Origin: a virus
IMG/VR virus record: IMGVR_UViG_3300008113_005797
Location: 5,634-69,633 of that record
Length of the DNA stretch: 64,000 nt
Strand: one strand, 5' to 3'
The position numbers and the translations under genes were made by a program. The notes under the pieces were generated by a model. The model was given only the letters and a program-made list of their open reading frames with translations, had not been told where the DNA came from and did no database searches. Positions 38,531 through 48,121 of the stretch are shown piece by piece (positions within the stretch are counted from its first letter, which is position 1; every line of letters starts with the position of its first letter).

Positions 38531-39070
38531 TTAAGATATTACTATATTGTTTCCTGCTATGAACCATTGCGATGGCTCGCATCGTATGTCGTAAACATTT
38601 TTTGCTGGAAGCTCTTCTATGGTCTCAACTGTTTCAAATGTTATTTCGCAAGACTCTATTCTCAATGTTACAAGTATGTCTCCAACTTGAACTTGCCCAG
38701 CCTCTTTATGTTTAACAACATTTCCATCTTTTACAAATATGAGCTGATTTTCTGAGAACAGCGTGTCTGATTCATTAAACCTCACTATACTCTTTTGAGC
38801 AATTTCATGCTTGACAACTGTTGTTTCGGCAAGGACTACTTTTTCTCTAATCTGTATTCCAGCCCCAGATGCTAGATCTGCAATGTTTATTTCTGAAGGA
38901 TCAACTGTTAAAAGAACGTCTCCTATGTTTACATTTTTTGCCAACAGGTATCCATTTGGCGTAAGCACCTGTGAGTCTTCTTCAATGCAGGCCTTTCCAG
39001 CCTTAAAGCAGTGAGAATACATCCCAAGTTTTTCATGTAACTCTACAGAGTCATTTTTTTCTATATTCAT
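38531..39070 (-). CDS. 27-aa peptide fused to a Hint (Hedgehog/intein) domain
   Basis: GGAGG RBS before ATG 39070; CIEEDSQVLTPNG...IGD, VQVGD, VYDIRC..WFIAGNNIV. Confidence 0.8.
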   Translation of the reverse strand: MNIEKNDSVELHEKLGMYSHCFKAGKACIEEDSQVLTPNGYLLAKNVNIGDVLLTVDPSEINIADLASGAGIQIREKVVLAETTVVKHEIAQKSIVRFNESDTLFSENQLIFVKDGNVVKHKEAGQVQVGDILVTLRIESCEITFETVETIEELPAKNVYDIRCEPSQWFIAGNNIVIS

Positions 39071-39098
39071 CTTTTCCTCCGAATTTTTGTTTAGATTA

Positions 39099-45336: not shown

Positions 45337-45391
45337 TTGTTCCTCCGCATTTTATTGCATAGTATTATTATACATCAATATTTCTTTAGGA

Positions 45392-48121
45392 TTACCCAAG
45401 AACAATATATTGACCTACAATAAACCACTTATTAGGTGTTGTTCTAACGTCATAAACTACCCTATCAGAACCGTCAAATGTGTTGATAGCTTCTACAGTT
45501 ATTTGTGAAGTTTGTCCATCAGGGTTTACGGTAACAATACTATCTCCGACTACCACTTCGCCTGCTGCTACAGTTGTTAGTCCATGTTCTGCTGACTGTA
45601 TAAATATTGGCTGAGTAACGGATAGTTTTATAGGGTCATCGTTAAATGAAACTACTGGCTTTGAGTATGTCCACAATCCACCATTTGATTGAGATACTGC
45701 AAAGTCTCCTGCTCCTGGTGAGGATACGTCAACTTCACAAATCTCTACAGTTTCTGCGAGTGAGTCTACGAAGCTTTCTCCTTCAATAAAGTTTTCCATA
45801 TTAAATGAGTAAATTCTATCTCCTACAGAAAGATCTTTAACCATCTTTAAGCCATCTGTTGTTTGTATTAGCGTTTCACCATCTATACAATATCCTTTTG
45901 GCGCTTTAAAGTATGGGAACGTTGGGAACGTTGGGAATGTTGGGAACGTTGGGAACGTTGGGAATGTAGGTGAAGGGGAAAACGTTGGGAATGTTGGGAA
46001 CGTTGGGAACGTTGGTGAAACAGGGTAGCCCTTAGGTGTAAACGTTGGGAACGTTGGGAACGTTGGGAATGTTGGGAACGTTGGGAACGTAGGGAACGTA
46101 GGGAACGTTGGTGAAACAGGGTATCCCTTAGGTGTAAACGTTGGGAACGTAGGGAACGTTGGTGAAACAGGTTGAGTATATTTATAAACATAAATTGTAA
46201 TTGTTGAACCAATTGAAGCGGTTGTGCCTGAAGAGGGGCTTTGTGAATAAACTAGTCCGTCATTTCCAATGTCGCTGGTTGATATGTCTCCAGCATTATA
46301 AATTGTGTATTGAGAAGTGCTTGATGGGACAGATCCACCAATAAATTGAGGAACAGTAAAGGTTCCTTGAGTTGCTGCAATTGAGCTAGAATAAACAGCT
46401 GCAGAAGTTCCAGCAGAGTTATATGCACTAGCTTTTGCTCTAAAGTATTGTGGAGTAGTTCCTCCACCTTTTGCTACATAGTGTTCCATATCTGACTGTT
46501 GAACAACATAAGAGGTTACATTCATGTCAATATAGTCAGCATTTCCGTCTAATTTTTGTAAAGTGGTATTGTATCCAGTAGGGGTAGCAGTTCCTCCAGC
46601 CCAACCAGTAGTACTCATTGATATTGTAGTGCCTACTTGTCCGCTACCAAATATATTAGCAACTCCTCCATTTGGAATTGTGCTTGCGGTAAAGCATCTT
46701 GTTGTAGTTGTAGACTCTGCTGTTAAGCTTGTACCAGCACCATTTGTTGCAGTAGCATATGCCTTAAACTGTGCTTGGTCTGTAAGATCTTGTTGGGTTG
46801 TTGTATATGTAGCACTTGTTGTACCGCTTGCTACAATTGTTAGTGGGCTAAGCTTTATAATATTTATATTGTAAGAGGTTGGAGTGTTTGTCCATTCTCC
46901 TTGATTTGCAGTTATAGTTACTCCAGAACCCACATCTCCAGTAGGAGTTAGTGTTGGTGGAGTGCTAGAAACTGGTTTTACAGAAGAAGACACAAATGAG
47001 CCAGAATTTGATTCCCAATAATATTCTTGTGTTGGATTAAAGAAATCTACAACTGTAGGGGTTCCACGATATCCTCGTGATGTTCCATATACACGAACTT
47101 TCCATGGTCCAGACGTTGAGCCTGGCGTATAATTTGTTATAAAGCTTGATGTGGCATCTCTAGTTGCCATGGTAAATGGACCAAACAGACTTCCATCTGG
47201 ATACTCTGAGTAAATTTCATATCTCGTCTGTGTTATATTAATTAAAGACCAATCAATAATTCCAGCCTGCTCATCCACTCCTCCAGGATTTTGATAAACA
47301 GTTGCAGTTAATGATGGCAATAAGGGATTTAAATTATTAATGCTTGCGCTTTGGTAAAGCTTTAAGGTTTCAGTGTCGTTGCTTCCAACTGCTGCTCTGT
47401 ATGCCGCAGCGGCAGAAGATGTGTTGTTATATGGAGCTATAGATATCCCAACAGTCGTTAATCCAATAAGATCGTCTAAATTATTAGCTCCGAAATCAAA
47501 GTCCCAAAGGTTATTTCCTTTGCCTGAGACTCTGACTACATTTCTTGCAATTCCTGGACCCTGATAAATTATTTCATATCCATCTGCTCCTGCAGAGACA
47601 TCCCAAAATACTCTAATTTTTCCATTTATATATCCGCCTCCATCTTGTTGTACAAAAGCTGTTATTGTTTGGATAAACTGAGGAAGCATAATAGATGAGC
47701 TAGTTGCATATGCCTTTTCGCTATCCCCAGCAGCGTTTGTAGCAATTACCGAACATCTAATTTGATATCCAACTAAATCTTCTGTAAGAACTAGACTGGT
47801 AGATGTTTGACCTTCTATTGATGACCAATTAATTTGTGATCCAGAATATATTCCTTTTTCCCATTGATATTTATATGAAGATGGATTTGCATCCCAGGTT
47901 CCATTTGTTGAAGTAACTGTTTGTCCAACTCCATAAAGTTCTTGCCCTCTAGAATACGACAAGGTTGGAAGAGTTAAATTTAAAGGTTTGTCAACAACTT
48001 GTATCCAAGAGGATCCGTCAAAAATAAATGCCTTTTCTTGACTACGCCAAGATTCATCAACGTAGACTTTAATTTTTTTAAGAGGCTGCCAAGAGGAGCC
48101 ATCAAAAATTTTAAAAGGCAC
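45392..48121 (-). CDS. Ig/FN3-like + PASTA-like + (PTF)n repeat + Hint domain protein
   Basis: GQTVTSTNGTW..SYKYQW Ig-like repeats; TVPQFIG...VYSQSP..GT...GSTITIYV; PTF repeats; CIDGETLIQT...VYDVRT. Confidence 0.85.
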   Translation of the reverse strand: MPFKIFDGSSWQPLKKIKVYVDESWRSQEKAFIFDGSSWIQVVDKPLNLTLPTLSYSRGQELYGVGQTVTSTNGTWDANPSSYKYQWEKGIYSGSQINWSSIEGQTSTSLVLTEDLVGYQIRCSVIATNAAGDSEKAYATSSSIMLPQFIQTITAFVQQDGGGYINGKIRVFWDVSAGADGYEIIYQGPGIARNVVRVSGKGNNLWDFDFGANNLDDLIGLTTVGISIAPYNNTSSAAAAYRAAVGSNDTETLKLYQSASINNLNPLLPSLTATVYQNPGGVDEQAGIIDWSLINITQTRYEIYSEYPDGSLFGPFTMATRDATSSFITNYTPGSTSGPWKVRVYGTSRGYRGTPTVVDFFNPTQEYYWESNSGSFVSSSVKPVSSTPPTLTPTGDVGSGVTITANQGEWTNTPTSYNINIIKLSPLTIVASGTTSATYTTTQQDLTDQAQFKAYATATNGAGTSLTAESTTTTRCFTASTIPNGGVANIFGSGQVGTTISMSTTGWAGGTATPTGYNTTLQKLDGNADYIDMNVTSYVVQQSDMEHYVAKGGGTTPQYFRAKASAYNSAGTSAAVYSSSIAATQGTFTVPQFIGGSVPSSTSQYTIYNAGDISTSDIGNDGLVYSQSPSSGTTASIGSTITIYVYKYTQPVSPTFPTFPTFTPKGYPVSPTFPTFPTFPTFPTFPTFPTFPTFTPKGYPVSPTFPTFPTFPTFSPSPTFPTFPTFPTFPTFPTFPYFKAPKGYCIDGETLIQTTDGLKMVKDLSVGDRIYSFNMENFIEGESFVDSLAETVEICEVDVSSPGAGDFAVSQSNGGLWTYSKPVVSFNDDPIKLSVTQPIFIQSAEHGLTTVAAGEVVVGDSIVTVNPDGQTSQITVEAINTFDGSDRVVYDVRTTPNKWFIVGQYIVLG
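45911..46172 (-). repeat. coding 9-bp tandem repeat (PTF)n with interspersed TPKGYPVS units
   Basis: Plus strand GAACGTTGG units. Confidence 0.95.

Follow-up and report, generated by a model that had tools for sequence, protein, structure and literature searches.

Hint domains with glutamine in block B at the C-terminus of putative phage fibre proteins: a phage-restricted family with predicted N-terminal self-cleavage

What can a Hint domain still do when it lacks the residues for splicing and when nothing follows it in the protein? This question is raised by a stretch of viral DNA of 64,000 nucleotides (IMG/VR virus record IMGVR_UViG_3300008113_005797, positions 5,634 to 69,633; referred to as the window in the following), in which three genes, here named gpA, gpB, and gpC, end with such a domain. 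From sequence and structure comparisons we consider it somewhat more probable than the contrary that gpA and gpB belong to the virion of an uncultured siphovirus-like phage, as fibre or decoration proteins of modular build, and that their Hint domains, resembling those of the bacterial intein-like (BIL) type, carry out a single-turnover self-cleavage via an N-terminal thioester.

A preliminary description of the window had reported three minus-strand open reading frames (ORFs) with terminal Hint domains, and ORF calls and translations agree with this. The protein gpA reads ...FKAPKGY/CIDGETLIQT...VGD...SVTQPIF...VYDVRT...IVLG-stop, gpB reads ...FKAPKGY/CIDGETVIQT...SITQPIF...VYDVRT...IVLG-stop, and gpC reads ...FKAGKA/CIEEDSQV...IGD...SENQLIF...VYDIRC...IVIS-stop, the slash marking the position before the first cysteine of the domain (Cys1). 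Position 45889 of the preliminary description is the Cys1 codon of gpA. The motifs claimed there are present in every copy, namely Cys-Ile-[Asp/Glu] and Gly-Asp in block A, VYD in block F, and a block B in which the His of the TxxH motif is replaced by Gln (SVTQ in gpA, SITQ in gpB, SENQ in gpC). The three proteins also stop as stated, without a terminal Asn and without a C-extein. Because both are absent, splicing is impossible by anatomy, as had been proposed. The residue preceding Cys1 is Tyr in gpA and gpB and Ala in gpC. For gpC two start codons have to be considered. The ATG at 39070 is preceded by GGAGG at a distance of six bases and would leave a 27-residue leader ahead of Cys1; it is more likely the start than the TTG at 39112. 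A run of T follows the gpC stop codon.

With single sequences the Pfam scores remain under the gathering cut-offs: 20.5 and 16.8 bits for Hint (PF01079; cut-off 29.7, which a further score of 22.2 does not reach either), 20.8 for Intein_splicing (cut-off 35.8), and 15.2 for Hint_2 (PF13403; gpB, cut-off 28.4). Compared with each other, the Hint domains of gpA and gpB match with an E value of 3.6e-92 and those of gpA and gpC with 1.7e-11. A profile built from 37 family members was then compared with the PDB. It matched the BIL domain of C. thermocellum (2lwy) best, over its full length and with an E value of 6.6e-10, and mini-inteins with E values between 1e-7 and 1e-4; in the alignment to 2lwy the S-x-x-Q of the family lies over T-F-D-H and VYD over VYN. 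The AlphaFold2 model of the gpA Hint domain has a mean predicted local distance difference test score (pLDDT) of 91.8 and a predicted TM-score (pTM) of 0.86, and a Foldseek search with this model gave 44 PDB matches at E <= 1e-3 with TM-scores up to 0.76. The matches listed are inteins, BIL, Hedgehog, and Vint domains (among them 6rpq, 4o1s, 6y75, 1at0, 6tyy, and 2lwy), led by the PhoCDC21-1 intein 6rpq (top, E 2.2e-7), the TvoVMA intein, and the BIL2 of Tetrahymena (6y75). In the model of full-length gpB the two fn3 domains (residues 20–200) and the Hint domain (residues 300–465) are predicted with confidence, and the linker in between (211–297) has a pLDDT below 50. The best matches in BFVD are uncultured Caudovirales proteins named automatically as PASTA, fibronectin type III, or "Hint domain containing", and the neighbours in the ESM Atlas are viral Hint clusters; some family members thus already carry automatic Hint labels in public databases. 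Since profile, model, and structure search all arrive at the same fold, the assignment to Hint, already made in the preliminary description, is beyond reasonable doubt.

How far is this kind of domain distributed, and which of its residues are conserved? An exhaustive HMMER search of 1.84 billion representative sequences returned 74 proteins at E <= 1e-3. Fifty-seven of these contain the whole domain, and in all 57 it ends 1–17 residues from the C-terminus; the remaining matches are canonical inteins, matched in block A only, or repeat proteins. Together with the ORFs of 56 IMG/VR loci the representatives gave 104 unique domain sequences, for which we required that the domain reach the C-terminus. 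P0069, which is shortened, and seven intein-like matches were left out, and the borderline case P0052, which resembles an ordinary Hint domain, was kept in the counts. All sequences stem from uncultured phages except one contig of a metagenome-assembled genome (MAG). Cys1 is present in 77 of the 77 sequences that reach the N-terminus of the domain; 27 further ORFs start inside the domain and were not included in this count. In block B, position B:7 is Ser or Thr throughout (103/103; Ser 96, Thr 7), and position B:10, the place of the canonical His, is occupied by Gln in 93 of the 104 sequences and by His in the other 11. The Gln found in the window is consequently an inherited state of the whole family. 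The suggestion that its recurrence in the third copy reflects selection does not hold, and a convergent origin in the three copies could be ruled out.

The C-termini fall into four classes, counted after one false positive of the pattern search (P0015) had been moved. The type of the window, without His-Asn and ending on IVIS, IVIA, IVLG, or the like, comprises 57 of the 104 sequences. A His followed by Asn or Gln and 1–3 further residues, typically LVHNK, is found in 39, VHxK in four, and His-Asn with a longer tail of 4 to about 15 residues in another four (P0059, P0068, P0074, and P0063). The latter all have the block B His as well and look like the least derived, type A BIL-like form of the family. 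Judged from these sequences, the simplest reading is that the ancestor was type A BIL-like, with His, His-Asn, and a tail of few residues, and that the C-terminal chemistry was then lost stepwise while Cys1 remained unchanged. In the clade without His-Asn, position F:4 of block F is Asp in 40 and Glu in 11 of the 57 sequences.

The family is not cellular: a scan of 185,579 species genomes gave a single match, the 10-kb MAG contig L063. Scans of NCBIfam returned nothing relevant to the family and those of PHROGs nothing for the Hint parts. Among deposited phage records, the N-terminus of gpB had zero matches and that of gpA only weak partial matches to hypothetical proteins. In the literature, searched outside subscription journals and supplements, no description of a C-terminal Hint domain on a phage fibre protein was found, and the two phage papers found to mention Hint concern inteins of terminase or ribonucleotide reductase.

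A second constant feature lies directly upstream of the domain. In 74 unique sequences Cys1 is preceded by 12 or more residues, and among these the fraction of Pro, Phe, Tyr, and Trp in the 40 residues ahead of Cys1 has a median of 0.69. It falls below 0.4 in three of them, two of which still contain Pro/Phe repeats; the real outlier is gpC with 0.075, so that a Pro/Phe-rich linker precedes the Hint domain in 73 of 74. The linkers consist of tripeptide-like repeats (PFF, PPFF, PTF, GFTPF) encoded by tandem DNA repeats, which in the window have period 9 in gpA (45914–46111) and periods 12, 42, and 84 in gpB (39690–39895). At the junction itself the residue at -1 is variable (13 types, most often Lys with 20/74, then Tyr with 10/74), and a basic residue occurs within -6 to -1 in 55 of 74. 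As N-terminal partner domains, fn3 was found in 14 and PASTA in 7 of the 37 profile members; the matches in the window are fn3 in gpB (Pfam, E 2.5e-11) and PASTA in gpA (residues 614–647, Pfam, E 1.4e-5).

This pattern of conservation points to chemistry at the N-terminal junction. Because Cys1 never changes while His and Gln are exchanged at B:10 and His-Asn is lost in 57 sequences, the N-terminal reaction would be the function that was retained. The course of events, which we infer for gpA and gpB, would be as follows. A precursor would be made that consists of N-terminal binding modules (Ig-like, fn3, PASTA), a Pro/aromatic repeat linker of about 95 residues, the junction ...FKAPKGY/C, and the terminal Hint domain. 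The thiol of Cys1 would then attack the carbonyl of Tyr(-1) in an N-to-S acyl shift aided by Ser(B:7), by Gln(B:10) instead of His, by Asp(F:4), and possibly by the bulky Tyr at -1. Resolution of the thioester, with water as default, would release the 165-residue Hint domain and leave a mature protein with a Pro/Phe-rich C-terminal tail. A C-terminal reaction is not expected because nothing follows the domain. There are precedents for these steps: the Tko CDC21-1 intein is active without the block B His and uses another residue (PMC4031507), a bulky residue at -1 can make up for the lost His (PMC6333167), and type B BILs cleave without splicing (PMC4031507).

Several points weigh against N-terminal self-cleavage. 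The review PMC4031507 calls His B:10 the most conserved residue of inteins, and Gln is perhaps a poor catalyst, so that the reaction may be very slow or dependent on a trigger. Position F:4 is non-acidic in the His-Asn clade (Gln 17, Leu 8, others), and therefore the members of the family do not all share the same catalytic residues. The Pfam scores of the single sequences are below threshold. Cultured phages appear to lack the domain, as a tblastn search with P0001, P0003, P0049, and P0011 against 50,697 phage records gave zero matches. Finally, it is hard to see what a phage would gain from capping a Pro/Phe tail with a domain that removes itself.

We considered two alternatives for the function of the domain. 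The thioester could be passed to a specific nucleophile and not to water, as would be expected from a ligase of the Hedgehog or BUBL kind. BUBL BIL2 and Hedgehog domains transfer the acyl group to an acceptor, and both are close structural neighbours of the family (6y75; 1at0, 6tyy). The amine or hydroxyl that serves as acceptor could lie on a different virion protein, on a nearby Lys of the protein itself, or on the host cell wall; the Pro/Phe tail would be anchored covalently and the Hint domain would leave. The conservation of Cys1 and of [ST]xx[QH] fits this equally well, type A BILs ligate via a free amine (PMC4031507), and the fn3 and PASTA modules fit wall-binding proteins. The frequent basic residue before the junction and the predominance of Lys at -1 would agree too, but the -1 position as such is variable. 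The array of hydroxylase-type genes next to the Hint genes (see below) is syntenic in related phages, which for this very reason is not independent support. Moreover, the protein ends at the Hint domain, so that no region for the recognition of a sterol or an adduct follows. Altogether we regard such a ligase as unlikely. Its most specific form is improbable likewise, namely that the Hint caps are single-use virion ligases which hand the Pro/Phe C-terminus to an amine or hydroxyl of a virion protein or of the Gram-positive wall and thereby create a covalent tether; in that case the Pro-rich tails may also be substrates of the adjacent prolyl-hydroxylase-type oxygenases, or these enzymes may generate the acceptor. 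To our knowledge, covalent tethering of the Hedgehog/BUBL type has not been described for any phage. An internal thioester between Cys1 and the block B Gln, like that of Gram-positive adhesins, is very improbable because His occupies this position in 11 of the 104 sequences.

The other alternative is that the domain is not catalytic and is retained in the mature protein, where it would serve in binding, oligomerisation, or structure at the distal end, the loss of His and of His-Asn being a loss of chemistry. The absence of Asn, the Gln in place of a residue that is so conserved in inteins (PMC4031507), and the persistence of gpC as a free-standing protein with a leader of only 27 residues would all be compatible with this, and phage fibres usually bind their receptors with C-terminal domains. 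It is, however, hard to explain without junction chemistry why Cys1 is found in 77/77 and [ST]xx[QH] in 103–104/104, and a sister clade has retained His-Asn. Furthermore, among orthologues the Hint domains are 91–96% identical (omega 0.06–0.10) and the N-terminal 200 residues only 79–83.5%. The Hint domain, whose conservation exceeds that of the remaining protein, does not behave like a typical host-range tip, and this role is disfavoured. We consider a non-catalytic module to be rather unlikely.

Why does the window contain three copies? In gpB, residues 1–464 are 65–67% identical to single proteins of 445–452 residues in related phages, and residues 40–193 of gpC are 72–73% identical to the Hint end of the gpB orthologues (loci L027, L034, and L025). 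The Hint domain of gpB is a 75% amino acid copy of that of gpA, and the DNA similarity between both genes extends from the FPYFKAP codons, which lie seven residues upstream of Cys1, to the stop codon. From this pattern of identities and from the borders of the similarity it can be concluded that a copy of the gpA segment FPYFKAPKGY-Hint-stop was inserted into the repeat linker of gpB and left gpC behind. Accordingly, gpC is the ancestral Hint domain of gpB, displaced by the inserted gpA-type module. Over block B, gpA and gpB share a tract of 76 identical nucleotides against a background identity of 72.5%; a run of this length was seen in none of 20,000 simulations, which indicates a later gene conversion. 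The C-terminal module of gpA was itself exchanged: the identity to its orthologue of about 1020 residues in L027 is 81% over residues 1–648 and falls to 39% in the C-terminal part. The IVLG type of the domain has a 14-residue insertion and is found only in the phage of the window and in the near-identical contig L007. A word-index search for further copies returned only the protein clusters of the window itself. In a related locus (L053; 1–798 and 9239–10465) three Hint ORFs were observed, including a stand-alone ORF of 175 residues ending on NGWVVGSK beside a fragment ending on VLVHTK; here tandem or displaced Hint modules may have arisen a second time, independently.

Is gpC still functional? 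Freed by the recombination into the repeat linker, gpC persists as a separate, still constrained ORF of uncertain use. The N-terminal part of gpB is 83–85.5% identical to that of its orthologues, which among themselves have 79–83.5% and thus are equally divergent; gpC, in contrast, shares only 73–75% with the attached orthologous Hint domains, which are 91–96% identical to each other. Since its displacement, gpC has evolved faster. What the preliminary description called the divergent third copy is the displaced Hint domain of gpB. For its branch, dN is 0.14–0.16, dS 0.7–0.85, and omega 0.16–0.20, values that have to be read with dS near saturation and with a branch that also spans the time before the displacement. 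The constraint on gpC is thus relaxed yet retained, and a neutral pseudogene is not supported by this omega. That gpC is a decaying remnant without a function of its own is possible, though we put the chance at somewhat less than even. It arose by displacement, has lost the Pro/Phe linker (0.075 against the family median of 0.69), and is 25–27% diverged from the orthologues, compared with 4–9% for the attached domains; in addition, a Leu replaces the near-invariant Pro after the Gln, which is unique in the family (1/111). On the other hand, the frame is open and has its own GGAGG and ATG, the residues Cys1, Ser, Gln, Asp, and Trp are retained, and omega is far under 1, with the reservations just mentioned. 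The only near relative of this lineage is L007, in which gpC is identical.

The coordinates of the features are compiled in Table 1. The source record comprises 69.6 kb with an estimated completeness of about 60%, and almost every gene in the section from 3 to 54 kb of the window lies on the minus strand. PHROG matches reveal a structural module of the siphovirus type with a tape-measure protein of 2747 residues, whose length implies an unusually long tail. The capsid protein is 57–60% identical to the major capsid proteins of Streptomyces phages of about 130 kb (Sham, Faust, Mildred21). This likeness together with the PASTA modules suggests an actinobacterial or otherwise Gram-positive host, and the G+C content of the window of only 32–41% hints that the host is an actinobacterium of low GC content, possibly one living in freshwater.

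Table 1. Positions of the Hint proteins, their parts, and neighbouring genes in the window
Feature	Position	Strand	Remarks
gpA, 909 residues	45392..48121	-	Ig-like modules, PASTA-like module, (PTF)n linker, C-terminal Hint
gpA linker	45890..46174	-	Pro/Thr/Phe tripeptide repeats up to junction FPYFKAPKGY
gpA Hint, 165 residues	45395..45889	-	Cys745, Ser834-x-x-Gln837, Asp891; end IVLG
gpB, 465 residues	39099..40496	-	two fn3 domains, (PFF/PPFF)n linker, Hint
gpB linker	39597..39884	-	Pro/Phe/Tyr-rich
gpB Hint, 165 residues	39102..39596	-	Cys301, Ser390-x-x-Gln393, Asp447
gpC, 179 residues from ATG 39070 (193 from TTG 39112)	38531..39070 (to 39112 with TTG)	-	stand-alone Hint
gpC Hint, 152 residues	38534..38989	-	
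76-nt tract identical in gpA and gpB	45541..45616 (gpA) and 39248..39323 (gpB)	-	over block B
Fibre-like genes with Mtd_N heads	40522-42738 and 48135-49967		members of the fibre-like cluster
Nine paralogous ORFs, about 230–300 residues	31733-38436	-	directly downstream of gpC
Array ORF with N-terminal zf-CDGSH besides 2OG-FeII_Oxy_3	33924-34841	-	
Array ORF matching DUF6065	36212-36943	-	
Array ORF matching phrog_7084	35500-36240	-	
Fibre, 383 residues	30574-31725	-	collagen triple-helix repeats and Peptidase_S74 intramolecular chaperone; other flank of the array
Portal	26773-28365		PHROG match
Prohead protease	25337-26719		PHROG match
Capsid-type structural protein	24269-25318	-	PHROG match
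Tape-measure protein, 2747 residues	11230-19473	-	PHROG match
Tail proteins	3146-10805		PHROG match

The three Hint genes belong to a cluster of fibre-like genes at 38.5–51.4 kb, transcriptionally upstream of the portal gene. Another gene of this region (43240–44754, minus strand) encodes a fibre-like protein of 504 residues and contains a perfect 57-nt tandem repeat (44071–44228, 2.8 copies, 100% match) that encodes Ala-rich repeats (TKANAAQAAAEATASADAT). In the array adjoining gpC, seven of the nine ORFs match 2OG-FeII_Oxy_3 (PF13640; prolyl-hydroxylase type), one DUF6065, and one phrog_7084. Because Pro-rich repeat proteins are situated at both flanks of the array, such proteins are candidate substrates of the oxygenases. 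Oxygenase-like ORFs were found in 48 of the 56 related loci, and in 27 of the 56 the first of them begins at most 300 bp after the last Hint gene; as the loci stem from related phages, this reflects shared ancestry as much as linkage and is not independent evidence. A gene for a protein of 602 residues with a Laminin_G_3 (concanavalin-like lectin) domain (28762–30570, minus strand) is situated between the block of fibre and oxygenase genes and that of the portal.

Taken together, the family comprises about 100 distinct natural sequences with Gln at the place of the block B His, an invariant Cys1, and a stepwise loss of His-Asn, and offers a test case for the minimal requirements of a Hint domain for the N-to-S acyl shift. 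The family also suggests that phage fibre proteins with Pro/Phe tripeptide-repeat tails pass through an as yet unstudied step of maturation or attachment. If N-terminal self-cleavage takes place, a compact N-cleaving Hint domain that lacks C-terminal chemistry could be of use as a tag that removes itself or as a thioester generator.

Among known systems, the Peptidase_S74 chaperone is comparable as a self-removing C-terminal domain on phage fibres, and one is encoded in the same window. One phage would thus possess two different types of self-processing C-terminal domains, and the Hint-dependent step would be an additional solution in the same genome, based on a different chemistry; fold and chemistry of both are unrelated, so that the likeness is one of analogy. 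With the C-terminal autoprocessing domain of Hedgehog (1at0, 6tyy) the phage domains share the fold (TMt 0.75) and, as predicted, the cleavage of X/Cys by a domain on the C-terminal side, which activates the N-terminal product. They differ from it in having SxxQ instead of TxxH, in their Pfam Hint scores (16.8–22.2 versus 29.7 bits), and in ending without a sterol-recognition region. The CDC21-1 inteins (6rpq, 6rpp), to which the top Foldseek match belongs, are the group of Hint domains that are active although they lack His B:10, and they have a bulky residue at -1 (Tko CDC21-1 orthologues; PMC6333167 and PMC4031507); the review lists only two inteins that lack this His (PMC4031507). In contrast to the phage domains, the CDC21-1 domains possess Asn and a nucleophile in the C-extein, as true inteins do, and compensate by a Lys outside the motifs and not by Gln.

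Type B BILs are located close to the C-terminal end of large proteins that are secreted. Like the phage domains, they and Hint_2 have an N-terminal Cys and no intein-like His-Asn in block G. The phage family is nevertheless distinct from them, since it is phage-restricted, has Gln at B:10, and stays under the Hint_2 threshold, with matches at E <= 0.01 in 5 of the 37 members; cleavage uncoupled from splicing, as predicted here, is a type B trait (PMC4031507). PT-HINT (PF07591) gave weak matches in 5 of the 37 as well, and no toxin domain is found downstream of the Hint domains of the window. The type A BIL of C. thermocellum (2lwy), the best profile match, has the same fold (TMt 0.76), the same Cys1 nucleophile, and likewise no nucleophile after the domain, and the sister clade of the phage family ends on His-Asn as type A BILs do. 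In the three copies of the window, however, His-Asn is missing, nothing follows downstream, and the block B His is Gln; moreover, the phage domain is always located at the extreme C-terminus of fibre-like proteins behind Pro/aromatic repeats. The Ser/Thr of the TxxH motif of the Hint superfamily is kept but its His is not, and the terminal Asn, Gln, or Asp followed by a C-extein starting with Cys, Ser, or Thr, which marks a canonical intein, is replaced by the stop codon. The domains of gpA, gpB, and gpC are thus neither inteins nor type A BILs and, by the thresholds, neither Pfam Hint nor Hint_2 domains, and they represent a novel type within the BIL/Hint group that is confined to phages.

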